Source: a virus
Strand: one strand, 5' to 3'
Virus record (IMG/VR): IMGVR_UViG_3300008952_000030
Coordinates: 12,426 to 76,425 of that record
DNA: 64,000 nt
Position numbers and translations under genes: made by a program. The notes beneath the pieces were generated by a model, which saw nothing but the letters and a program-made list of their open reading frames with translations, searched no databases and was not told the origin of the DNA. Shown here piece by piece: positions 10,000 to 47,204 of this stretch (position 1 is the stretch's first letter; the number at the start of each line of letters is the position of its first letter).

Positions 10000-10028
10000 A
10001 TTATATGATATGATTTTCAAGAAGTCAA
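10000..10028 (-). promoter_or_regulatory. sigma70-type promoter
   Basis: TTGACT-17-TATAAT. Confidence 0.75.
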
Positions 10029-10741: not shown

Positions 10742-10790
10742 GCAAGCTGGCCTTTTATCGTGACATGCCAAGGTCACTTGTTATTTGTAC

Positions 10791-10821
10791 CTACTTCTTA
10801 GAAGGGCTACTTCTTAGAAGG
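10791..10821. repeat. 15-bp direct repeat (period 16)
   Basis: ctacttcttagaagg at 10791 and 10807. Confidence 0.8.
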
Positions 10822-10893
10822 AGGGTTGTTATCTCGACCACCACCACTGGGGTTGCCAGTGGTAGAGGGCCATCCACCGTTATTGTTACTCAT
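10807..10893 (-). CDS. 28-aa Gly/Asn/Pro-rich peptide (not in ORF track)
   Basis: MSNNNGGWPSTTGNPSGGGRDNNPPSKK*; GGAG SD; ATGA-coupled to an upstream 32-aa ORF (10890-10988). Confidence 0.6.
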   Translation of the reverse strand: MSNNNGGWPSTTGNPSGGGRDNNPPSKK

Positions 10894-10999
10894 GGGAACT
10901 CCGGGTAGTCATCATTGTAGTAATGTGTTCCATCGTCCCAGTCTTCCTGCTTTCCAGGCTGGGTGTATACTTTGTAGTAAAAATTCATATTTTACATTC

Positions 11000-11225
11000 T
11001 CCTGTCGGGCTTACCGACTGTTAAAGTGTGGCTTATTTAAAGACAATCTCCACAAAATGTCTTGCCTTTCTGCATCTGGCCAAGACCAGAAAGATGACGA
11101 CAACAGCGAACGACTATACAAAAGACTCTGCCCTTCGTATATCGCTATCAGTTACACCGCTCGCAAGGACTTTGCCCTTGTAGGCATACGACGTTTTCCG
11201 TTTTCTGACGGCTCCCCTTACTGTT
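11000..11225 (-). ncRNA. candidate multi-hairpin ncRNA or long leader
   Basis: Downstream of TTGACA-17-TAGTAT (11245-11273); no credible ORF; at least 5 hairpins. Confidence 0.4.
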
Positions 11226-11438
11226 TTCGATTTTGTATATTATAATACTATCATGAATCGATGGCTTTGTCAAGCTCTTTCTAGCCTAGAAAACTTGATT
11301 TTTTCACCGTGCTCTTTCAAAAGTTTCTTTTTCTTCTTTTCACAAATCGCTTTAATCGCATAAATGTGCTTTTTCTCTCCATTGGAGATTCTATACGTCA
11401 AGTGGTATATCATTTCGTCTTTTCTCACTTCTTCACAT

Positions 11439-11467
11439 ATTATAAGTAATTAAATTTTAGAAGTCAA
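11439..11467 (-). promoter_or_regulatory. sigma70-type promoter
   Basis: TTGACT-17-TATAAT. Confidence 0.75.
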
Positions 11468-11689
11468 GAAGTTTTTTTCTTTTTTTCATTTTCTCGCTGG
11501 ATCCAGCTTCGGAACGCCTTCACGCATGAGAGCACCAGTGAGTCTTTTTTCTCTGGTGGGCTACCAATGCCCCAAGTCTCGTTGAATACTTCTAATTCTT
11601 TCTTTGTCAAGGCTTGTTCCACCAATCAGTTAATTTTTGCCCCAGAAACAAGCCTAGTGCTATCGCAAACACAGTACCAATAAATTCCA

Positions 11690-11968
11690 TTACTCTACCC
11701 TCTTCGTTAGTGGAAACGGTACCAGATTGTCATGGTTCCGCTCCTTATTTTCTGCCATCACCCACTTAATCTCTCCATCTTCGGTGTGCTCTCCCTTAAT
11801 CTTTCCCTCGCACGCCAGAACCATAAGCCCCATGAAGATGTCGTTGTGCTCTGGCACCTCAATAGCGCCTGAGCTATAGTGGCTCATGAGAGCATGAAGT
11901 ATCTTTACACCTTGCCCAAGCACATTGCGGCGTAACTGCTTCTCTGTAGGCACCTGTATATCGTACAT
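11690..11968 (-). CDS. hypothetical protein
   Basis: Start re-assigned to MYDIQ, after the upstream stop. Confidence 0.6.
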   Translation of the reverse strand: MYDIQVPTEKQLRRNVLGQGVKILHALMSHYSSGAIEVPEHNDIFMGLMVLACEGKIKGEHTEDGEIKWVMAENKERNHDNLVPFPLTKRVE

Positions 11969-11969
11969 A

Positions 11970-12179
11970 TCAATTCTCCCATTCGAAGTCTGATTCTGAA
12001 TTTCCAACCACCCAAGTCTCGACGGCGCTCTCAAGTGCCTCACTTAGGGCAAACTGCGCATCGGGTGGGAAACAACCTGATTTAATCTCGGGGTAGCTTT
12101 TAGCGATAACCTCCCAAAAGGCAAACTCAGCGTTCTCCGTAATTTTCTGAAGCTTGTCATAATCTAAATTCTTATACAT
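11970..12179 (-). CDS. hypothetical protein
   Basis: GGAGG SD; promoter directly upstream. Confidence 0.65.
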   Translation of the reverse strand: MYKNLDYDKLQKITENAEFAFWEVIAKSYPEIKSGCFPPDAQFALSEALESAVETWVVGNSESDFEWEN

Positions 12180-12197
12180 TGTTTTCCTCCAACTCTT

Positions 12198-12234
12198 AAA
12201 CCATTATAAGATATTAAATTTCAAAAGTCAAGAA
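12198..12234 (-). promoter_or_regulatory. sigma70 promoter, 37-bp identical repeat copy 1
   Basis: TTCTTGACTTTTGAAATTTAATATCTTATAATGGTTT, identical at 12808-12844. Confidence 0.85.
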
Positions 12235-12415
12235 GTTTTTTTCGATTCTTTACCACTTCTAGGTGTTGCGGGCACTGTTCGCTATAGCCGCAATTACAGT
12301 ATATCGTGACTAAGCGCACAGCAGGTAACCCGGTTACGACTGCTGTGTCACAACGCTTGTCGCCGGGATCGCCGGAGCAACTCACCATTGGTTTAACCAA
12401 ATCACCGACTTTCAC
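12221..12415 (-). CDS. KVGDLV SH3/KOW-like cassette protein
   Basis: GTG start inside the junction repeat. Confidence 0.75.
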   Translation of the reverse strand: MKVGDLVKPMVSCSGDPGDKRCDTAVVTGLPAVRLVTIYCNCGYSEQCPQHLEVVKNRKKLLDF

Positions 12416-12596
12416 TGACTCTCCTTAGATATTGCGAGTGGACTGCATTTGAACTAGGCGCTCTTCCATCAAAGAATCGGACGACATAACAGTTTTTCTG
12501 CGCTGCATTGGCGCTAACAATGCCGATGCGATATTCCTGTCGTAGCGGGTGCGATCGCGGCAGAGTAGGACACCTTACCAAATCACCGACTTTCAC
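12402..12596 (-). CDS. KVGDLV SH3/KOW-like cassette protein (...VSESR*)
   Basis: Start and stop both inside junction repeats. Confidence 0.8.
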   Translation of the reverse strand: MKVGDLVRCPTLPRSHPLRQEYRIGIVSANAAQKNCYVVRFFDGRAPSSNAVHSQYLRRVSESR

Positions 12597-12783
12597 TGAT
12601 AGTCTCCAATTCATCGAGATACTCCCACAAGGTATTCCCCTGTGGTCTGGGTAGATTCCACTTAACTAACACTTTCTCCAAATAAAGAAAAGTGTCTCTC
12701 TCTATCACCAGTCCTACCAAGGGTGATTCACTCAACTCTTTGTGAGGGAATATCGTATACTTCACCAAGTCACCGACTTTCAT
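12583..12783 (-). CDS. KVGDLV SH3/KOW-like cassette protein (...ISESR*)
   Basis: Start and stop both inside junction repeats. Confidence 0.8.
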   Translation of the reverse strand: MKVGDLVKYTIFPHKELSESPLVGLVIERDTFLYLEKVLVKWNLPRPQGNTLWEYLDELETISESR

Positions 12784-12807
12784 CTTCTCTTGCTCCCTCA
12801 ATCATTA

Positions 12808-12844
12808 AAACCATTATAAGATATTAAATTTCAAAAGTCAAGAA
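12808..12844 (-). promoter_or_regulatory. sigma70 promoter, 37-bp identical repeat copy 2
   Basis: Identical to 12198-12234. Confidence 0.85.
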
Positions 12845-12941
12845 AAAATGAAATTTAGTGGTTTTAAGCCTCTCTTCATCCTATTGCATACTTAGAGACA
12901 CATCACCCCTCAAACTCCCGTTAGAAGAAGAGCCTGACACG

Positions 12942-13178
12942 TTAGGGGACATCCCTGTCTATGATAATTAGCCATTCCTCTCGTGGTTCGCAGTATGCAT
13001 CGATTTCCTCTACGTACACCAGATGCTTAACTACCCTCGATGGCTTGTGTTTGTTTTTCTCTACCCTGTCGACACTGTAGGGGCGTAGAACCTCTCCTCT
13101 CATACCCCTGACGTTGTGTCCAAATACGTCGTAGTCTGCTGTGATTTCCACAATCATACCCTTAACGTATTTAATCAT
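12942..13178 (-). CDS. small SH3/KOW-like protein
   Basis: YVKGMIVEI...GEVL. Confidence 0.55.
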   Translation of the reverse strand: MIKYVKGMIVEITADYDVFGHNVRGMRGEVLRPYSVDRVEKNKHKPSRVVKHLVYVEEIDAYCEPREEWLIIIDRDVP

Positions 13179-19390: not shown

Positions 19391-19582
19391 TCACCGACTC
19401 TCACTGATTAACTCCAAATCGCTTTTCTTAGTAGTAGTTCTTGCGTTGTTGTCCTTACTCCACATAACAACCTTTCTTTCATCTGTGCCAGGGATGCATC
19501 GAATAACAATGCCATACCAATCCTTCCAGCAACTTGAAATAATCCCGTCTGGAGTGTATCGCACCAAATCACCGACTTTCAC
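19391..19582 (-). CDS. KVGDLV cassette protein (...ELISESR*)
   Basis: Start and stop inside repeats. Confidence 0.8.
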   Translation of the reverse strand: MKVGDLVRYTPDGIISSCWKDWYGIVIRCIPGTDERKVVMWSKDNNARTTTKKSDLELISESR

Positions 19583-19757
19583 TGATAACCTCGTACTCTC
19601 TGATCCTATGGACCTCCACCTTCCTACCGGGGTATGCAACCCGGATGAACTCTTCAAAGCTGCCATAGTCAGGGATACCAAGACACACAGCCACAGTTTC
19701 CTGATGGTGTGGATCGAGGCGACCCCAACGCTTCTGAACCAAATCACCGACTTTCAC
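19569..19757 (-). CDS. KVGDLV cassette protein (...EVISESR*)
   Basis: Start and stop inside repeats. Confidence 0.85.
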   Translation of the reverse strand: MKVGDLVQKRWGRLDPHHQETVAVCLGIPDYGSFEEFIRVAYPGRKVEVHRIREYEVISESR

Positions 19758-19944
19758 TGATAACCTCTGCGCTCATTTCTATCTGTCTACCTAATGCAAT
19801 GTACCTACCATCTGTCATAACAAGCCAGTCATACTCATAAGAATCATCTCTTGGTAGTTTCTTAACTAAGGTGGCAACATAACTTTTCAAGTTAAAATGA
19901 TTGTATGTGCCACGAGATAACCTTACCAAATCACCGACTTTCAC
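19744..19944 (-). CDS. KVGDLV cassette protein (...EVISESR*)
   Basis: Start and stop inside repeats. Confidence 0.85.
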   Translation of the reverse strand: MKVGDLVRLSRGTYNHFNLKSYVATLVKKLPRDDSYEYDWLVMTDGRYIALGRQIEMSAEVISESR

Positions 19945-20086
19945 TGATAACCTCCGTATCATCTCTATGAACTCGATACTCTCCATCAGGAAAGAGAACA
20001 TAAAACCCGAAAGGAATAACCTTAGTGATAATACCAAGTGTTAGCTGGGGTTGACTTACCTGTTTCACTAAATCACCGACTTTCAT
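19931..20086 (-). CDS. 51-aa KVGDLV cassette protein (not in ORF track)
   Basis: Hand translation MKVGDLVKQVSQPQLTLGIITKVIPFGFYVLFPDGEYRVHRDDTEVISESR*. Confidence 0.85.
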   Translation of the reverse strand: MKVGDLVKQVSQPQLTLGIITKVIPFGFYVLFPDGEYRVHRDDTEVISESR

Positions 20087-20267
20087 TGAGAACCTCCAAA
20101 AACCTAATTCCGAACCTTGTATCTGTACCGTCTACTAGTACCTTCACCACTATAGAGGGGTGATGTGGATTTCTCGATGGCTCAACAAAACCAACCACCA
20201 GTCCACACTTCGATCCCCACCAAAAACAATCATCATCTGGCAGTTTTACTAAGTCGCCGACTTTCAC
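20073..20267 (-). CDS. KVGDLV cassette protein (...EVLNESR*)
   Basis: Start and stop inside repeats. Confidence 0.85.
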   Translation of the reverse strand: MKVGDLVKLPDDDCFWWGSKCGLVVGFVEPSRNPHHPSIVVKVLVDGTDTRFGIRFLEVLNESR

Positions 20268-20433
20268 TTAACACCTCGCAGCGATTTTCGACATAACCTC
20301 GATCGAGATAGTCTAACACGCCATTGTTTGCTAGAACACGATAGGCGTTGACGTCGCCATATTCGTCCTTATACACAATGATGCCAAAGGCATCGTTGAA
20401 CTCCTTGTCCACAATCAAATCACCGACTTTCAT
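20233..20433 (-). CDS. KVGDLI cassette protein with extended tail (junction TGA changed to CGA)
   Basis: EVLSESR followed by RLSKTAR*. Confidence 0.8.
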   Translation of the reverse strand: MKVGDLIVDKEFNDAFGIIVYKDEYGDVNAYRVLANNGVLDYLDRGYVENRCEVLSESRRLSKTAR

Positions 20434-23620: not shown

Positions 23621-24880
23621 TCACTTTTTCTTTAACTTTGCCAGTTCGTCCTGCCACTTAAGCATTGTTTCCACCATGCTCTTCTTGTTCATCGAACTGA
23701 TTTCCTTATGAGAAAGCTTGCCATCACTGGTGATGGTTTCTTGACTGCTCGTAACAATCTCTCTCTTGTATCCCTCTTGCTTAAGCTTTTCTGCAATCTT
23801 CATCCTATCCTTCGCCAGCTCAGCATATTTTTGAGAGATATCAATACCAATCCATTTTCTGTCGTTGAGGTGCGCCATCTTTGTAGTTGTGCCAGAACCC
23901 ACAAAAGGATCGAGGACAACATCTCCCGGCTCAGTCCAAGTCAAAACGTGATCTTCTACCAGTTTTTCAGGATAAATTGCTGGATGTTCAAACGCAATCT
24001 TATCCTTTGTTGAAAAGTTCTTTCCTGTGTTGTACTTCCAGATATTGTTTCGCGGGGAGAACTCTGGTACAGGCTTTTGCACCCGGCTCTTGAGCTTTCC
24101 GTCCTTGCCACGCATCGATGAAACACCGAGCCCCAACTTAGAATAGTTAACCTTCCGAAAGTCAAAACCCTCATCATCAATAGTCAAGCCATTTTGCGCC
24201 TCTTTGTATCCCATCGACTTAAGCGCCTTCCTGATAAGCCCGAACAACTCTTGCTTTTCTGATTCAGTGTGACTCTCCTCAATTGAGTCAAAGTTGAACT
24301 TATCGTTAAAACTGCCCCAACCAGTCCACTTATTTGGCTTGTCACACACAAGCTTGTGAGTCTTTGGCTTGCCCTTCGAGAACACAAACATATACTCAAA
24401 TATTTGCGAGTAGCGATTGCCGTCTCTGCGAGCAGGAAACGATGTACCATTCTTCTCGTAAATCATGGTATCGTGAATATTAAATCCGATATCTTTAAAG
24501 TACAAAGCCTGGCGGAAAGAACTTCCAGACTCGCTTCCTTTGTCAACCGCATCTCCAACAACCCACACAACAACCCCACCTGGCTTAGTTACTCTATAGA
24601 GTTCGTCTGCAATGTCCTCAAAAGGAAATGAATATCCATTATTTTCTGTGAGCTTTTCAGCTATCTTCTTTTTCTTAAATGCTGATAGTTCTCTCTTAAA
24701 CTCTTTCTCGTCTGAGAAGTCGTCGACTGTCTTGTTGAACGAAGCAGTAAACTCGTCAGAATAAAACCTAATGTCATCGTACGGAGGAGAAGTCACCGTC
24801 AAATCAACACTACTATCAGACATAAGTTTAAGCTTTTCAACTGAATTTCCACACAGAATTTTATTAAGCGGCAATGACAT
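23621..24880 (-). CDS. beta-class amino DNA methyltransferase (SPPY, probably N4-cytosine)
   Basis: TSPPY precedes HPAIYP and DPFVGSGTT. Confidence 0.9.
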   Translation of the reverse strand: MSLPLNKILCGNSVEKLKLMSDSSVDLTVTSPPYDDIRFYSDEFTASFNKTVDDFSDEKEFKRELSAFKKKKIAEKLTENNGYSFPFEDIADELYRVTKPGGVVVWVVGDAVDKGSESGSSFRQALYFKDIGFNIHDTMIYEKNGTSFPARRDGNRYSQIFEYMFVFSKGKPKTHKLVCDKPNKWTGWGSFNDKFNFDSIEESHTESEKQELFGLIRKALKSMGYKEAQNGLTIDDEGFDFRKVNYSKLGLGVSSMRGKDGKLKSRVQKPVPEFSPRNNIWKYNTGKNFSTKDKIAFEHPAIYPEKLVEDHVLTWTEPGDVVLDPFVGSGTTTKMAHLNDRKWIGIDISQKYAELAKDRMKIAEKLKQEGYKREIVTSSQETITSDGKLSHKEISSMNKKSMVETMLKWQDELAKLKKK

Positions 24881-25619
24881 TGATTTTCTCCTTGTTTGTG
24901 TTGTTGACTTTCATTAGCTTATTGTTGTTGTCGCGATACTTGTCAAGAGACTCTTTGACAATCTTACACCACTTCTTCTTAGGTTCGACGGATCCGAGCG
25001 AAATATAGCTGGAGTAAGCTGCAATCCGTGACTTGTGGATCCTTGCTGTGGTAAAGCTACTCTTATCTGTAGCCTCTCCCTTCCACCCCATGTCAAAGCC
25101 ATCTACCACCGAAAAGTGCGCAGACTTAAACATGCCATGAATAGCTGAAGTTGAAAGCGGAGGTAGCTCCATCTCTTTGTCCAACTCATAGTTAACAAGA
25201 ACATAGTTATCAATCTTGCCGCTGCCCTCAGAGTGTGTTGCTCCAGTCCATCCGTTGCTACTCTGAGTTGTCTTCACCTCGAAGTAAACGATGTTTGCCC
25301 TGTCCTCCACTCGGACGCCAAAGTCATTTTTTTGTTCCTTTGCGTTATGAAGCTTAGAAACCGTATCAAAACCATTATCTGATAATACCCTCTTGATGGC
25401 ATACTCAAATTCGTACGCAGAACGCACAGTTAAAAAAACAGTTTGCTGTCCCACGTTCTCTTCTACATGCTGAACATAATCGTTGAGAGTCCTTATAGAT
25501 GGCTCAAGCCTTCGGAGGGACTTGAAGTTATCCCCTACGACGCTCTCCACCAGAGCCATCACATCGATGGCAAACTGCTTCGTCCGCATGAACGAAACAA
25601 GCTGATTGTAAGTTTTCAT
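24864..25619 (-). CDS. putative PD-(D/E)xK restriction endonuclease
   Basis: ND...FEVKTT motif; overlaps the MTase start. Confidence 0.55.
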   Translation of the reverse strand: MKTYNQLVSFMRTKQFAIDVMALVESVVGDNFKSLRRLEPSIRTLNDYVQHVEENVGQQTVFLTVRSAYEFEYAIKRVLSDNGFDTVSKLHNAKEQKNDFGVRVEDRANIVYFEVKTTQSSNGWTGATHSEGSGKIDNYVLVNYELDKEMELPPLSTSAIHGMFKSAHFSVVDGFDMGWKGEATDKSSFTTARIHKSRIAAYSSYISLGSVEPKKKWCKIVKESLDKYRDNNNKLMKVNNTNKEKINVIAA

Positions 25620-25637: not shown

Positions 25638-25835
25638 TTATTCGAATAGGTTTGCAATTTCTCTTGCTATTGTAATTATATCTGAACTCTTCTCCAAAGT
25701 CAAGTCTTTGTTGTCTTCTAATAGACTCTTGACTCTCTTAAAGATTTCTTCTTGTGTTATATTCTCTATCTTTTCTGTCGGGAAGTGAACCACTCGTTCC
25801 ATACCCTTGGGCCCAGAGAGATATATTCTAGACAT
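25638..25835 (-). CDS. hypothetical protein
   Basis: ORF in the gene string. Confidence 0.55.
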   Translation of the reverse strand: MSRIYLSGPKGMERVVHFPTEKIENITQEEIFKRVKSLLEDNKDLTLEKSSDIITIAREIANLFE

Positions 25836-28984: not shown

Positions 28985-30865
28985 TTAGACTTCCTCAAAT
29001 TCAGCATCTACGACGTCGTCATCCTGATCCGCAGGCTCTTCACTTGATGGCTCTTGCTTTGCTGCCGACTCATACATTTCTTTGCCTGCAGCCTGCATTG
29101 CCTGTGTCAACAGCTCAAGCTCTTTCTTGATTAACTCCGGTGTACTTTCCTGAGTTAAGCACATTCTTGCCGACTCTATTGCTCTTTGCACGTCGCCGCT
29201 GGTAGCTTCTGAAATCTTATCCGGGTTTTCTTTGAGAAGTTTTTCTGCTTGAAATACCGTTGATTCAAGCTTGTTCTTGTCCTCTACCTGTTGGCGGCGT
29301 TCCTTATCTTTCGATTCGTTAGCCTTTGCTTCTGCCACCATCCTATCCACCTCGCCCTTAGACAAGGATCCTCCAGACTTCTCGATAACAATCTTTTGTT
29401 CCTTGTTTGTAGCTTTATCAGTCGCAATTACGCTTACAATTCCGTTGGCGTCGATATCGAACTTAACATCGATTTGAGGAACTCCGCGAGGAAGAGGCGG
29501 GATGCCATCAAGCTTGAACACTCCCAAAACCTTATTATCTGCTGCGAACTCCCTTTCCCCTTGCAAAACTTTGATATCAACGGCAGGCTGACTATCAGCA
29601 GCAGTTGTAAAAACCTGTGATTTAGAACAAGGTATCGTTGTGTTCCTGTCGATAAGCCTTGTCATAACACCTCCCATTGTCTCGATACCTAGCGATAATG
29701 GAGTCACGTCAAGAAGAAGCAAATCCCTTACTTCTCCCGTAAACACTCCACCCTGCACTCCGGCGCCGAGCGCTACAACCTCGTCTGGATTGACGGAAGA
29801 GTTTGCCTGCTTACCGAAGAAATCTTCCACTGCCTTACGGACACAGGGGATCCTTGTAGAGCCTCCAACCAAAATCACTTCGTCTATCTCCGACGATGAC
29901 ATGCTAGCGTCCTCAAGCGCATTCTTGACTGGTTCAATAGTCTTTTTGACTAACTCATCTATCATCTGCTCAAACTTGGAGCGGTTCAAGGTGAGCTGCA
30001 AGTGCTTTGGGCCGGAGGCATCGGCAGTGATAAATGGAAGATTCACATCCGTCTGCTGAGTGCTTGACAATTCTATTTTAGCTTTTTCTGCTGCTTCTCT
30101 CAACCTCTGCATTACCATGGAATCTTTCGATACGTCGATGCCAGAATCTTTCTTAAACTCTTCGACTATCCACTGGATTAGAACCCTGTCAACATCGTCA
30201 CCACCAAGATGCGTGTCCCCATTCGTACTTAGAACCTCGACTACGCCATCAGCTATCTCAAGCACAGAGACATCAAAGGTGCCGCCGCCCAAATCGTATA
30301 CAACAATCTTCTTTTCATCCTGCTTGTCAAGCCCATAAGCAAGAGCTGCAGCAGTTGGCTCGTTGATTATTCTCTTAACCACAAGTCCAGCAATCTGTCC
30401 AGCGTCGCGGGTTGCTTGTCGCTGAGCGTCGTTAAAGTAAGCTGGGACAGTAATGACTGCCTCCTTCACTTCCTCCCCTAGATAAGATTCAGCTGCTGAC
30501 TTCAGCTTAATAAGAACCTGAGCGCTGATTTCTTGAGGAGCTAATCCTTTTCCGTTTAACACAATCTCGCAGGATCCGGATGCTGACTTCTTTACTTCGT
30601 AGGGCATCTCAGATGCCTCTTTCGTCACCTCTTCATAGTTCATCCCCATAAATCTCTTGGCGGAGTAGACGGTGTTCTTGGCATTCGTAACAGCCTGCCT
30701 TCGAGCTGGATTGCCGACAACTCTTTCTCCGCTTTGCAGATACCCCACTACCGATGGAGTAGTTCTGGCTCCCTCTTCGTTTGTGATTATCTTTGGGCTG
30801 TCGCCCTCCATGACAGCGACGGCGCTATTGGTTGTTCCTAAATCAATTCCGATAACTTTTGACAT
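28985..30865 (-). CDS. dnaK: Hsp70 chaperone DnaK
   Basis: [32 protein letters not shown]. Confidence 0.98.
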
Positions 30866-35304: not shown

Positions 35305-36882
35305 TTAGTCTCCCATTTCTATAATAGCGTGGTTAGTTGTCAAAAGAGTGCCTGCTACTGACGCTGCATTGCGCAGAGCGCTCCTTGTCACCTTAACAGG
35401 ATCGATGATTCCTACTTCAAACATGTCAACCAATTCGCCGGTTGCAAAGTTGATGCCCGTTCCGGCTGAAGCCTCTGTGATTGCGCTTAGTGTCTCTTCT
35501 ACATCCATCCCACAGTTAGTAGCCATTTGGCGGATGGGCTCCTCCAGAGCGCGGCGTATAATAGAAACGCCCGCTTCTTGATGCTCATTGTCGGTATTTA
35601 CTTTAAGCTCTGTCGAAGTTCTCAACAAGGCAGTGCCTCCACCTGAAATAACTCCCTCAAGCTGAGCTGAGCGCACTGCCTCTAGAGCATCCTCAATACG
35701 GTGCTTCTTTTCTATCATTTCAATCTCGGTTGCTGCTCCAACACGAATAACTGCGACGCCGGAAGCCAAACGAGTAACTCTATCCTGCACTCTCTCCGCT
35801 TGATGCAGAGAGTCAGTTTGCTCAACCTCCGCCTTAAGGGCGTCGATTCTATTCTCAACCTCGTCCAAGTCTCCTGCTCCGCCGACAACGGTTGTCAGCC
35901 CCTTCTCAATCTCGATTGTCTTCGAAGAGCCGAAGTCAGTCAACTTAGCCTCCTTAAGCTTGTCTCCGGCTGAGCGTCGAAAATACTTAGCACCAACTGA
36001 TATCGCCAAGTCACTCATGATACCTCTTCTTTCTTCTCCGTATCTAGGTGCCTTAACTGCCGCCACCTTCATCGTCCCTCTCATGGAGTTCATAATCAAT
36101 GCCGCAAGAGCTTGCCCCTCAATGTCATCGGCTACAATAACAAACGGACGACTCTCGCGGGCAGCAATCTCTAGCGCTGGTAAAATCTGATCAACAGTTT
36201 CAATCTTTTCATCAGTAACTAAGAAAACAGGATCCTCATAGCGCACAACTCCACGCCTGTCATCGGTGATAAAAGCTGTAGCTGCATAGCCAGAGTCAAA
36301 CCTGAAGCCCTCCATCAAGTCAAGACTTGTATCTACCGAGCGCGCTTCCTCAATAGTGATGGAGCCGTCCTTCCCAACCTTGTCGACAGCCAAAGCAACC
36401 AAGTTTCCAATGTCTTCGTCTCCATTAGCAGAAATAGTAGCAATGTGAGCAACGTCATCAGCGCTCTGAATCGGGCGCGCAGCATTAAGAAGCAACTTAT
36501 TTACTTCCACAACTGCTTTGTCGATGCCTCTCTTTACTTCGATGGGAGCTGAAGAGTCTGCGTTCATCCTGTCGGAGGCTGCGTTGAAGATGGCGCGAGC
36601 TAACACTGTAGAGGTGGTTGTACCATCCCCAGCGTCGACATTAGTCTTTGCTGCTGCCTGCTTAACAACCTGTGCACCAGCATTCATGAACTCATCTTCA
36701 AATTCAATGAACTTGGCTACAGTGACTCCATCCTTGGTGATGATGGGGCGCTTACCCTTTTCATGAATAATTACATTTCTACCCCTAGGGCCCAATGTTG
36801 AAGCAACGTTGTCGGCTAAGACATTAACTCCATCAAGTATTTTTTGTCGGAGGCAAGCTCCAGATGCGAATTTTTTAGACAT
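35305..36882 (-). CDS. groEL: chaperonin GroEL
   Basis: TLGPRGRNV, TKDGVTVA, GDGTTT, GIIDPVKV. Confidence 0.97.
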   Translation of the reverse strand: MSKKFASGACLRQKILDGVNVLADNVASTLGPRGRNVIIHEKGKRPIITKDGVTVAKFIEFEDEFMNAGAQVVKQAAAKTNVDAGDGTTTSTVLARAIFNAASDRMNADSSAPIEVKRGIDKAVVEVNKLLLNAARPIQSADDVAHIATISANGDEDIGNLVALAVDKVGKDGSITIEEARSVDTSLDLMEGFRFDSGYAATAFITDDRRGVVRYEDPVFLVTDEKIETVDQILPALEIAARESRPFVIVADDIEGQALAALIMNSMRGTMKVAAVKAPRYGEERRGIMSDLAISVGAKYFRRSAGDKLKEAKLTDFGSSKTIEIEKGLTTVVGGAGDLDEVENRIDALKAEVEQTDSLHQAERVQDRVTRLASGVAVIRVGAATEIEMIEKKHRIEDALEAVRSAQLEGVISGGGTALLRTSTELKVNTDNEHQEAGVSIIRRALEEPIRQMATNCGMDVEETLSAITEASAGTGINFATGELVDMFEVGIIDPVKVTRSALRNAASVAGTLLTTNHAIIEMGD

Positions 36883-39464: not shown

Positions 39465-40070
39465 CTACTTTTTTGAAGTATTTATACTCTCTCGTAGTAT
39501 TCTTTTGGTAACACGCTTCAAAATCTCATTCACCATGTTGTCGAAATCTTCGTTAGTCACAACGTCGAGATCCTCTAGAAGCTCATCGTCGTCGGCAAGC
39601 TCGTCACCGGGCATTTCTGCCTCTGGTGGGACTTCGCCCATCTCCATCTCAGCTTCGAGTGGCTCATCCTCCGCTCCAAGCTCCTCCTCTCCAGCACCGG
39701 CAGCGCGGAGTCTATCCCCTAGAGCTACGAGGATTTCTGCTTCCTCTTCGCTAAGAGACATCTCGCCCTCTTCCTCTGGTGCGTCAAGAGCAGGCTCATC
39801 ATCAAGAGCAGGCTCATCATCAAGAGCAGGCTCATCATCAAGAGCAGGTTCACCGTCAAGCTCATCTTCTCCGGCTGGTTCCAACTCCTCCTCGTCTCGG
39901 GCGTACGCAGGTGCGCCCATCTCGTTGATCTCTTCCTCTTCAGTGACTGTCTCGTCGATATCGGTGTCTTCTTCTGACTCCTTTATAAACTTGCTACCAC
40001 CAATGGTATCGAGGGAAGCCAACTTCATAAATCTACGAATAGTTGCCTCCGAGAGTAGTTTCTTGCTCAT
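39465..40070 (-). CDS. very acidic scaffold/prohead-core-like late protein
   Basis: LLSEATIRRFMKLA...MVNEILKRVTKRILRE; ACTATTTA at 40133; own terminator. Confidence 0.65.
   Translation of the reverse strand: MSKKLLSEATIRRFMKLASLDTIGGSKFIKESEEDTDIDETVTEEEEINEMGAPAYARDEEELEPAGEDELDGEPALDDEPALDDEPALDDEPALDAPEEEGEMSLSEEEAEILVALGDRLRAAGAGEEELGAEDEPLEAEMEMGEVPPEAEMPGDELADDDELLEDLDVVTNEDFDNMVNEILKRVTKRILRESINTSKK
39784..39848. repeat. 18-bp tandem repeat (3.6 units) encoding DDEPAL
   Basis: tcaagagcaggctcatca x3 plus 11 bp. Confidence 0.9.
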
Positions 40071-43757: not shown

Positions 43758-46700
43758 TTACGCCAACATCCTGAAGGTTCTTCCGATGCTTCTTGTCGAG
43801 AAGCCCCACTGAGCGTCCCATTGAAGCTTTGCCAAATAAGGGCGATTAACCCTAACCACGTCCTTGCCTGGGCGAACGCCCCAACACTTGATGGTGTTCG
43901 TCTCGCTGTTGCTATCAATGACGCGAATCAGATAATAGTCCTTACCGTTGCGCGTCTTCTTCTTGATAACTTCACGGGGCACGAACCACACAACACCAGC
44001 AGACAACTGAGGATCGTACTCTGAGATAGGTGGAATATAGTTCTTTTCCAAGCTACTCACAATGTGATCAGACAACACCAAGTTAAACGGGAACACTCCA
44101 GTTAAGTCAACAAGATATTGAATCTCCTCTTCCTCAGTGAAGTCACCCTCTGGTGCATACTTCGTGATGTTCTCTACCAGATGTTTTTCCTTGCGCGGGC
44201 GATCAACAGCCACTGCACTCCAAAAGTGCTTCGTACCTTCAAAACGATCGTCGACGAGAGGCTTAAGCGCACCTGAACGTGCTAGCACGTCAAGAGCCTT
44301 CTTGTTTAACTTAGAGTAAACGATGTTCTCGTTGAACAGAAACTCCTCCACCTTGTTGAATGGGCGATTGTTGATTATTTGCTCAATAGCCTTTTCGCCC
44401 AAACCTTTAATAGATGTCAAAGGCTGAATCAATGTCTTGCCGTCTTCTGATATTTCCCAAACAGAACCAGACGTGTTAATATTCAACGGCTCGACACTGA
44501 ACCCGTGTGCCTTCGCCACATTAATAGCCTTCTCCTTTCTTGTTTCAGGCTCCTTGTCGAGGAAAGCTGCTACCCACTCAGCAGGATAGTAATTCATAAG
44601 CCACGCGCACTGAAAAGACAGCACACAATACGATACGGCATGGGACTTGTTAAAGCCATACCCCGAAAAGTACTCAAAAGTGTCCCAAAGCTCTTTCGCT
44701 TGCCACTTCTCAAGTCCCTTCTCCAAGCAGCCATCCAGAAACTTAGAATATATCTTATCCTTCTGCTCTTGCACTTCGCCTGTGCCCTTCTTTGTCAAAA
44801 GCTTACGAAGCTTGTTGCCCTCGTCAAGAGACAAGTCCTTGCCAAGACGGTGAGCCAGCATAGCAATCTGCTCCTGAAAGATGAGGAAGCCAAATGTCTC
44901 CTCTGTCACCTCTCTCACGATGTCATTGACATACTCGACTTCATCGGGAGCGTTCTTTGCTGCAATGAACTTCTTGTCCACGCCAGCGCCCAAAGGGCCC
45001 GGGCGATAAATTGAAGTGATAGCTGCAAGCTCAATGATGTTGTTGGGTGTTGCCCTCTTACAAAAAGACTGTGCTCCGTTTTCAGTAAACTGAAAAATGC
45101 CAACCCACTTGCCATCATGAAAGATGTTGTCCCACACCTGCTTATCATCTAAGTCGATGACTTCCGGGTGCAGACGCCTATCGTAGAAAGCTCTTACGTC
45201 TTCAAACGTAGGATTCTCAATTCCCTCATGCCTTTGCAGTATGTGCCGCACGGCACCCTCTATCATCCTGAGAGAAGCAAGTCCCAAAATATCAAATTTA
45301 ATAAAACCCATTGGTTCCAGATGTCGTACATTTTGTCCTTCACTCCATGGTGTCTGTCGAACACCTCCACTGTTAATCATTGGCATCCACTCGTCTAGGT
45401 TCTCACCTATCACGACGCCTCCGGCGTGGCGGCTTGCTGAGCGTACTTGTCCATATAGCGCCTCCACGTGAGTCTTAATTCTCGGATATTTTACTAAGAA
45501 TTTTTTCAGCGTATCCGAGAATTCCATGACTTCCTCAAACGTGGGAACATACACTCCTGCCGTGATGCCATGCTTCTTCTTTGCTAAGGGGGTTGCCTCA
45601 AAAAGCATCTTACCTGTAACATTGTTTACCTCGGTGAATGGCACTTCATAGAACTTAGAGATGTCCTTTATCAATGAGCGCAGCTGCAGGGTGTTCCAGT
45701 TTGTAATTGGAACAACCGTGTCATCACCCCACTCATCAATAAGCTCTTCCTTCAAGCTCATTGGAGAACTTACATCGTAATCGATATCAGGATAGCCGGA
45801 ACCACCCTTAGTTAAAAACCTCTCAAACTGTAGTCCATACTTGATTGGATCTACCTGAGTAATACCTAGAGCATATGAGACTAGTGCACCAGCTGCTGAG
45901 CCTCTGCCTGCGCCGACAAGCTGATTCTTTGTTGCCCTATCTGCGATAGCCTTCATGGTGAGAAAGTATTTACTGAACCCTCTGCTATCAATAACCTCTA
46001 TCTCTCTATCGAGTCTGTCAATGTATTCCTGATTGTCTCCGAATCCTAGTATCCTTGCCCCCTCCATACAGAGCTTTGCTAAAGCGTCGGTTGCAGTGAG
46101 CCCATCTGGTACCACAAAGTCTGGTAAACGCACGGTGTTATCCGGAAAGAAAGACTCAATTCTATCGTGAGCAATATGGTACGACTCAGTGATGGACTTC
46201 ATCACCAAGTCATCGTCATACTCGACTCCGCTCTCTTTTGAATACTTCTTATAAGACTCCCACATCTCATCTCCGTTTTTCGGATAAAGCTCGTAACCAA
46301 TCTCTTCAACTTCAATCGGGAGTTCCATACTGAGCCACTCTGGTGAGCCCTTGCCCAGCCAGCCGAGCCTCTTGTATAACTCTCTATCCTTCCATGCTTC
46401 AGAGTTTGGATAGTGACTGTCAGCAGTAGACAGCAGTGGGATACCGAACTCATGGTGCATCTGAATGATGTATTGATTCAAGTCATGTTGCTCTGGTACG
46501 TTATTCCACTGCAACTCTCCATACCATTTATCACCAAAAATGGACTGCATCTTTTGCGTTGTAGTCCTCATCGCATCTAAAACAGCGTCTGCTCCGTCCT
46601 CTCTGTTCTCCCAGTAATTACCGGCATAAATGCCCCCTAAACAAGCTGATGCAGCGATGACACCTTCACTGTGACGTTTAAGCATTGCGTAATCCACTCT

Positions 46701-47204
46701 AGGGTATCGATAAAAATGATCACCATCGTAGGATGTCGATATCATCTTAAAAATGTTCTTAAGCCCCTCCTGGTTTTGAGCTAGCAAAATCAAGTGGCGA
46801 CGTCTATTCAAGATAGATTTTATTTTCTTTTTAGATTCTTCGTTCTCAACCGTTGTGCCGCTTTGCACATCTTCCTTCTTCTTTCTGGACTTCTTTTCCA
46901 GCTTTGACTTTTCATACTCCTCCTTCCAGTTCGCGATTGATGGAATAAAGTACGCCTCACAGCCATAAATCGGCTTAAAGCTCTTGCCTTCTGCATGCAT
47001 CTTTTTAGCATGCAGAACTTGATGCGCCAAGCCGTTTGCATTTCCGTGATCAGTGAGAGCAAGGGCGTCCATGCCATTCTCATAAGCAAAGTCCATATGT
47101 TCTTGAGGGTACCCAAGAGCATCAAAGATGCTGCCTGCCACTGAATGGGCATGTAGCCCAACGAATGGGATTTCGGGCTTGTTTCTAGTCTCTGATGTCG
47201 GCAA
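43758..47204 (-). CDS. dnaE: DNA polymerase III alpha subunit (PHP plus catalytic core)
   Basis: LHAHS, ALTDHG, GRGSAAG, PDIDYD, RHAGGV, KFDILGL, YGFNKSHA. Confidence 0.97.
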   Translation of the reverse strand: MPTSETRNKPEIPFVGLHAHSVAGSIFDALGYPQEHMDFAYENGMDALALTDHGNANGLAHQVLHAKKMHAEGKSFKPIYGCEAYFIPSIANWKEEYEKSKLEKKSRKKKEDVQSGTTVENEESKKKIKSILNRRRHLILLAQNQEGLKNIFKMISTSYDGDHFYRYPRVDYAMLKRHSEGVIAASACLGGIYAGNYWENREDGADAVLDAMRTTTQKMQSIFGDKWYGELQWNNVPEQHDLNQYIIQMHHEFGIPLLSTADSHYPNSEAWKDRELYKRLGWLGKGSPEWLSMELPIEVEEIGYELYPKNGDEMWESYKKYSKESGVEYDDDLVMKSITESYHIAHDRIESFFPDNTVRLPDFVVPDGLTATDALAKLCMEGARILGFGDNQEYIDRLDREIEVIDSRGFSKYFLTMKAIADRATKNQLVGAGRGSAAGALVSYALGITQVDPIKYGLQFERFLTKGGSGYPDIDYDVSSPMSLKEELIDEWGDDTVVPITNWNTLQLRSLIKDISKFYEVPFTEVNNVTGKMLFEATPLAKKKHGITAGVYVPTFEEVMEFSDTLKKFLVKYPRIKTHVEALYGQVRSASRHAGGVVIGENLDEWMPMINSGGVRQTPWSEGQNVRHLEPMGFIKFDILGLASLRMIEGAVRHILQRHEGIENPTFEDVRAFYDRRLHPEVIDLDDKQVWDNIFHDGKWVGIFQFTENGAQSFCKRATPNNIIELAAITSIYRPGPLGAGVDKKFIAAKNAPDEVEYVNDIVREVTEETFGFLIFQEQIAMLAHRLGKDLSLDEGNKLRKLLTKKGTGEVQEQKDKIYSKFLDGCLEKGLEKWQAKELWDTFEYFSGYGFNKSHAVSYCVLSFQCAWLMNYYPAEWVAAFLDKEPETRKEKAINVAKAHGFSVEPLNINTSGSVWEISEDGKTLIQPLTSIKGLGEKAIEQIINNRPFNKVEEFLFNENIVYSKLNKKALDVLARSGALKPLVDDRFEGTKHFWSAVAVDRPRKEKHLVENITKYAPEGDFTEEEEIQYLVDLTGVFPFNLVLSDHIVSSLEKNYIPPISEYDPQLSAGVVWFVPREVIKKKTRNGKDYYLIRVIDSNSETNTIKCWGVRPGKDVVRVNRPYLAKLQWDAQWGFSTRSIGRTFRMLA

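Follow-up and report, generated by a model that had tools for sequence, protein, structure and literature searches.

Layout of the locus

The locus runs from gene A to genes B and C (Table 1). Between A and B stand a predicted promoter (P), an array of three tiny overlapping cassette genes and, directly ahead of the leader of B, a second predicted promoter (P') that repeats P exactly. It forms part of the window, by which we mean the whole stretch of 64,000 nucleotides that was analysed, and the window belongs to an IMG/VR record of 76 kb estimated to be 42% complete, which would place the full genome at ~180 kb. The source of the genome is an uncultured marine phage of a little-known clade, and a DNA search against the isolate phages of INPHARED gave zero matches to the window. 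All annotated genes of the examined part lie on the minus strand. The phage encodes a full-length DnaK (28985-30865; 55-61% amino acid identity to tblastn matches in phage-collection records, two of them annotated as DnaK), GroEL (35305-36882) and a DnaE-like replicative polymerase (43758-47204; phrog_405, ~30% identical to Bacillus phage DnaE), and likewise a ribonucleotide reductase and a DnaB helicase. Rfam, run over 8-23 kb, returned three tRNAs and nothing else, while Pfam gave nothing above threshold for any cassette, gene A or gene B.

Table 1. Features of the locus between genes A and C, in window coordinates and in order of transcription.
Feature	Position	Strand	Description
Gene A	12942..13178	-	78 aa ORF, conserved, upstream of the variable site
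A-P intergenic spacer	12845..12941 (97 nt)	-	AT-rich stretch adjoining the -35
Promoter P (predicted)	12808..12844	-	-35 TTGACT 12836-12841, -10 TATAAT 12813-12818; heads the cassette array
Cassette c1	12583..12783	-	66 aa ORF, MKVGDLV...ETISESR
Cassette c2	12402..12596	-	64 aa, GTG start, MKVGDLV...RRVSESR; 14-nt overlap with c1
Cassette c3z	12221..12415	-	64 aa, terminal, Cys-rich subtype (SCSG..RC..CxCG)
Promoter P' (predicted)	12198..12234	-	-35 12226-12231, -10 12203-12208; 37/37 identical to P
Gene B leader	12180..12197 (18 nt)	-	Shine-Dalgarno GGAGG 12186-12190
Gene B	11970..12179	-	69 aa, no family
Gene C	11690..11968	-	92 aa, conserved, downstream of B

Cassette genes and their dual-coding junction

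The initial annotation of this DNA had described three cassettes opening with KVGDLV at periods of 181 and 187 nt, and the open reading frames bear this out, the starts of c1, c2 and c3z being spaced by 187 and 181 nt. Both spacings are 1 mod 3, a consequence of the 14-nt overlap between successive genes, in which the ..SESR* end of the upstream gene is read over the downstream GTGAAAGTCGGTGA. The GGAGG that serves the next gene sits within the conserved C-terminal LEV codons of the one before it, and the junction is thus a single unit of stop, Shine-Dalgarno sequence and start that is read in two frames. An identity of this junction region with a site about 7 kb away had been put at 29 bp; the identity is real, and its length is 30 bp (12572-12601 = 19920-19949). 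An exact 22-mer from the junction is present in 63 IMG/VR stretches.

The same architecture explains the end of the array. As the SESR* tail is encoded by the start codon region of the following cassette, terminal cassettes are without it, in every relative as well as here. It had been remarked that the last cassette lacks the ISESR tail and runs into the promoter copy, and both are seen: c3z ends in ..VVKNRKKLLDF*, its TGA (12221-12223) falls within the spacer of P', and its last four codons and stop come from P'. The absence of the tail is, however, the normal state of a terminal cassette and not a truncation. No convincing decayed junction core was found at the 3' end of c3z.

The cassette proteins are 20-43% identical to c1, and what they have in common is confined to the two termini, MKVGDLV and EV[I/V]SESR, plus a core G[I/L]V. 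In its AlphaFold model (pLDDT 86.8) c1 has five strands arranged in a barrel, and the best Foldseek matches of the model are PetP, PsaE and Spt5/NusG KOW (TM 0.6-0.7, E ~0.05). As modelled, c1 is an SH3-like five-strand beta-barrel mini-protein of ~60 residues, on matches whose E-values are weak. In Pfam, c2 gave a weak match to the Tudor-like DUF4537 (E 0.006, below cut-off), and tblastn of c1 in INPHARED returned no match. Homologues of the c3z subtype in other phages (34-46% amino acid identity) can stand in the middle of an array with a normal LEVxxESR tail. The Cys-rich subtype motif, MKxGDLVxPLxSCxGxPGxxRC...CxCG, occurs in several phages of the clade at terminal or mid-array positions (window 12221-12415; L011 11537-11716; L058 1068-1262; L016 6463-6696; L070 5256-5453), and it may form a zinc-binding insert in the barrel.

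An exactly repeated promoter

As the initial annotation had reported, 12198-12234 and 12808-12844 are identical at 37 of 37 positions; the identity is not extendable by one base on either side. For a 37-bp repeat the chance expectation in 64 kb is ~1e-13, and this pair is the longest non-tandem exact direct repeat of the window. A 42-nt exact direct repeat at 39784-39843, with an 18-nt offset, is a tandem 18-nt repeat inside ORF 39465-40070. The TTGACT-17-TATAAT pattern ascribed to each copy was also found in both, on the minus strand. This pattern, a predicted promoter agreeing with the sigma-70-type consensus at 11 of 12 positions, occurs six times in the window, in all cases on the coding (minus) strand, and 0 times in 100 shuffles. 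Transcription is predicted to start near 12806-12807 from P and near 12196-12197 from P'; relative to this predicted start, P' extends from about -38 to -2. When the pair is set against other promoter pairs, a comparison that had been proposed as a check, it stands apart: P and P' agree at 17/17 spacer positions, against 9-13/17 in the others.

Beyond the 37 nt the two settings are not the same. Upstream of P lies the AT-rich aaatttcattttttc and downstream GAGGGAG followed by ATG; P' is preceded by an A-run, is directly abutted upstream by coding sequence, and is followed by GGAGG and ATG. The leaders of P and P' have no convincing homology beyond the 37 nt. A terminator scan of the minus strand found no stem-loop or terminator upstream of P or P', and the fold of 12835-12945 (z = -0.36 against shuffles) contains no convincing hairpin. 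Neither the exact promoter 34-mer nor the exact 23-mer spanning P' and the B leader had a match in IMG/VR, a collection in which the window's own record may be masked.

Several smaller observations concern the wider promoter family. P' and the region of the promoter at 11439 have a 19-nt stretch, GAAAAAAACTTCTTGACTT, in common (12226-12243 vs 11462-11479), and at both sites the upstream gene reads into the -35, in different frames. Unequal crossover with the 11439 promoter through this 19-mer was considered as a source of P' and rejected, because such a crossover would not yield the order seen here and because the terminal cassette of L070 has the A-run as well. The upstream part of P resembles the promoters at 10000 and 18990 (aaatttNattttttcTTGACT). 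The sixth perfect TTGACT-17-TATAAT (25675-25703) is isolated and lies upstream of gene 24864-25619, which adjoins a DNA methyltransferase gene.

State of the site in relatives

Three relatives carry B (L070/L074, L073 and L077), none of them closer than ~81% nt, and two of these reach A (L070/L074 and L077). In L070/L074, which are syntenic with the window at 72-91% nt, A is followed by one promoter, six cassettes and B, the last joined by an ATGA overlap and with no second promoter. L077, whose A and B are 65% and 46% identical in amino acids to those of the window, has A, one promoter, three cassettes, B (17-nt overlap) and C. L073 (81% nt over B-C) has a cassette, TAATTAATG and B, with no promoter between. 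Judged from these three junctions, B in the relatives is translationally coupled to the last cassette. Three more distant phages (L072, L075 and L076) pass from A directly to C, with P, array and B absent; in L072 4727-5270, as in L075 and L076, C starts 1 nt after A and a MKVGDLV cassette stands after C. Orthologues of gene A are 82% identical in amino acids in L070/L074 and 65% in both L072 and L077. A search for proteins homologous to B found one, 99% identical (P0001), and one contig was the only new viral relative that searches for related loci added, whether run with B alone or with an alignment of its orthologues.

How the window compares with these relatives differs along the locus. 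Both flanks of P are homologous to the flanks of the single promoter of L070, the A-P spacer matching at 68/98 positions and the c1 leader on the other side of P at 37/44, and P is for this reason taken to be the orthologous copy. Homology with L070, the closest relative, then breaks off within the first junction core, at 12764, beyond which L070 has six different cassettes and the window three. The content of the array differs again in L073, L077 and two metagenomic strains, X5 and X6; the cassette sets are wholly different, with the best cross-matches (34-53% amino acid identity) lying in other phages, and c3z is 34% identical to the terminal cassette of L070. On the other side of the array, L073 becomes homologous to the window from 12202, immediately after the -10 of P'. 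The BLAST homology of the B leader with L073 reaches this same position (17/22 positions match by eye), and up to 12202 the leader aligns with cassette coding sequence in L073. By this alignment the B leader is ancestral sequence, outside the promoter copy.

P' is absent from the equivalent position in L070/L074, L073 and L077. The initial annotation had proposed to look in relatives for an empty site, that is, a single promoter directly upstream of gene 11970-12179, and such a promoter directly before B without an array was not seen in any B-bearing relative. As far as these alignments reach, A-P-array-B is the shared layout, and P' is found in the window's lineage alone.

Metagenome contigs and strains

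The evidence from metagenome runs consists of k=31 contigs and unitigs, which break at a 37-bp repeat; among them no product of a deletion between the two copies was seen. The unitigs end at 12227, 12205, 12837 and 12815, the four borders expected of such a repeat, in three runs of two studies, and in one run the unitig of the 37-nt repeat has ~2x the depth of its flanks. Unit-to-flank depth ratios do not agree from run to run, X1 giving 0.8 and X4 no trend. The suspicion that the duplication is an assembly artefact, raised at the outset, is thus not borne out by the breaks at the four expected borders. A repeat-induced misjoin is something to consider in a metagenome assembly such as this record, the order of the segments on either side of a 37-bp repeat not being recoverable from k=31 unitigs, yet it deserves almost no credence here: sequencing reads are much longer than 37 bp, each of the four borders is found again in runs from two studies, the depths of flanks and unit are similar and that of the repeat unitig about twofold, and the relatives too have cassettes between A and B.

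Two strains bear on the history of the array. In a contig of X6, from an independent study, 12762 is joined to 12574, a clean loss of one unit of exactly 187 nt; short joints between junction cores (20-27 nt sides) were set aside as coming from other cassettes and organisms. Together with the break in L070 homology at 12764, this contig supports the exchange of genes at junction repeats that had been proposed from the window. The X5 strain, from another study and ~5.7% diverged in B, has both promoter copies and other cassettes in the middle of the array. The copy would thus predate some of the cassette turnover or have spread by recombination. Compared with the window, X5 differs at 1/139 nt on the array side of P' and at 26/461 on the B side (Fisher p = 0.0097).

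The second tier of modularity that had been proposed, the gain and loss of whole transcription units at promoter repeats, is seen less directly. The boundary of the X5 differences at P' and ~690 bp of extra DNA after the 11439 promoter are suggestive of exchange at promoters, and the claim stands at that strength. The extra DNA (window 10742-11428, minus strand) lies between the 11439 promoter and a tRNA-Lys gene when compared with L070 6165-6210 and L073 937-981, where the orthologue of this promoter directly precedes tRNA-Lys. It holds a 52-aa ORF and a promoter-like site (11245-11273), and a promoter bounds the indel on one side only.

Origin of the downstream promoter

The reading that we hold to be somewhat better than an even bet is that P' is a lineage-specific, secondary copy of P, comprising the promoter only and placed between a resident array and B. 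Its support comes from the comparison with relatives. P matches P' at 37/37 positions but its own orthologues at 26/37 (L070) and 25/37 (L077), which suggests that P' was copied from, or homogenised with, the P of its own lineage after the split. In all B-bearing relatives a cassette abuts B without a promoter, which suggests that the array was resident and that the downstream promoter is the novelty; by parsimony over these relatives, a single gain of P' stands against three losses. This reverses the direction of the event from that first drawn, since a promoter, and not a cassette unit, would have been gained.

The initial annotation had instead seen a recent insertion of the 610-bp unit of promoter and three cassettes. 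On such a model the unit, perhaps as a mini-circle, would have been integrated by homologous recombination at a promoter already standing before B, and would have ended up with a promoter copy on each side. Direct promoter repeats around a small block of genes are what integration of a mini-circle leaves in the promoter-early stem-loop (PeSL) systems discussed below, not one of the three cassettes is shared with a relative, and the contrast in X5 across P' suggests a recombination boundary at that point. We nevertheless regard this history as unlikely. The state that it requires beforehand, a promoter directly before B and no array, is found in 0/3 B-bearing relatives, all three of which have a cassette before B without a promoter; an earlier deletion of the resident array would be needed before the integration; and neither exact IMG/VR searches nor the relatives yielded a second copy of the unit. 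The leader of c1 is, moreover, orthologous to that of L070 (37/44), which makes the donor the same locus of a close relative. Nor does the perfect identity of the repeat, which had been read as a sign of a recent event, date it, the same repeat being present in the X5 strain with its ~5.7% divergence in B; P' need not be very recent, or else has spread by recombination. Against gain of the promoter alone it must be said that the cassettes adjoining B are non-orthologous and that what is conserved is the layout rather than the genes, so that wholesale replacement of the unit may have taken place.

A third history would make P' old: it would be the original promoter of B, lost independently in the relatives, and would owe its identity with P to gene conversion. 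Such homogenisation would account for the presence of two identical copies in a strain as diverged in B as X5, and it fits a promoter family that is abundant and partly mosaic, in which P' has 19 nt in common with the 11439 region and 37 nt with P. L016, a phage of the same clade, also has a promoter immediately behind a terminal Cys-type cassette. This history is decidedly unlikely, since it needs three independent losses where one gain suffices. The tight junctions between cassette and B, moreover, differ in all three relatives and hold no promoter remnants, and in L073 the counterpart of the B leader, as far as 12202, is cassette coding sequence.

The preferred reading, a lineage-specific copy of P, can be set out as a series of steps. 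The site would be a hyperplastic early-gene locus between the conserved A and B-C, where the near-consensus sigma-70-type P, whose activity is predicted, would drive a short array of tiny SH3-like genes linked through the 14-nt stop/start overlap, where the Shine-Dalgarno sequence lies as well. Recombination in this dual-coding junction of ~25-30 nt would replace, delete and add whole cassettes, leaving a different set in each relative. In the window's lineage only, the core promoter would have been copied exactly, from about -38 to -2, into the place between the last cassette and B. Through P', B-C would gain a transcription start of their own, and the promoter sequence would give the last cassette a different C-terminus and its stop codon. 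With 37-bp direct repeats now on both sides, the 573-bp segment separating the copies would become deletable or circularisable by homologous recombination. The route by which the 37 nt were copied is inferred, and every scenario requires at least one illegitimate joint.

A bolder proposal would treat the 37-nt block as a promoter-only mobile module, copied and inserted into the coding junction through a process that is either dedicated to the task or strongly favoured; template switching at the open complex and promoter-targeted recombination would be candidates. We consider this very unlikely. If true, transcription units would be re-wired independently of their genes, and the module together with the junction repeat would make up a genuine two-level shuffling system.

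Comparison with known systems

The closest precedent lies in the PeSLs of T4-type phages, described for RB49/phi1, PST/T4 and nt-1/KVP40 (Arbiol et al., 2010, PMC2839356; Comeau et al., 2014, PMC4122927). In RB49/phi1, deletion and circularisation of PeSL-flanked genes by homologous recombination have been shown experimentally, with mini-circles as products (PMC2839356, PMC4122927), and in T4, patches of <50 bp are enough for the phage to recombine (as cited in PMC2839356). The likeness to promoter-associated shuffling in T4-like phages to which the initial annotation had pointed is apt. Here too, predicted near-consensus sigma-70-type promoters combine an AT-rich upstream stretch with a Shine-Dalgarno sequence and a start codon, and recur in a hyperplastic region, ahead of small genes with no known function. 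As with PeSLs, indels between relatives abut promoters, in this case the P-array-B block that is absent from L072, and direct promoter repeats bracket a small gene block, which in PeSLs is the substrate that forms mini-circles. With respect to T4 itself, a perfect 37-bp direct repeat with its copies 610 bp apart would be a plausible substrate for deletion through short homology.

The differences are as clear. The stem-loop or terminator part is absent here; the downstream promoter copy lies within a coding end, with no spacer; and the phage, whose polymerase is of the DnaE type, is not evidently T4-type. In PeSLs the indel comprises the genes between two promoters, whereas in the relatives of the window it is the promoter itself. 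A second, gene-level recombination site, the dual-coding junction, is found within the unit. The stretch therefore resembles a PeSL-type system without qualifying as a member, the defining stem-loop being absent. Within the window, the nearest counterpart is the array at 19391-20433. It shares the junction (the 30 identical bp) and encodes SH3-like mini-proteins of the same kind, and its cassettes are likewise gained, lost and swapped at junction cores; the A-B array differs from it in standing at another site, with its own promoter ahead and, uniquely, an exact copy of that promoter after it.

The practical value of the case is modest, as the cassette proteins have no known function and all of the work is computational. 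Its interest lies in what it would say about the early regions of phages. At base resolution, a gene pair that was coupled to a cassette array appears to have acquired a copy of the promoter of that array, and this gain would have turned the array into a repeat-flanked, excisable unit. Read in this way, the locus would extend promoter-associated modular shuffling beyond the T4-type phages to a little-known marine clade, and would suggest that the stem-loop of the PeSLs is not needed for the promoter-shuffling pattern to arise.
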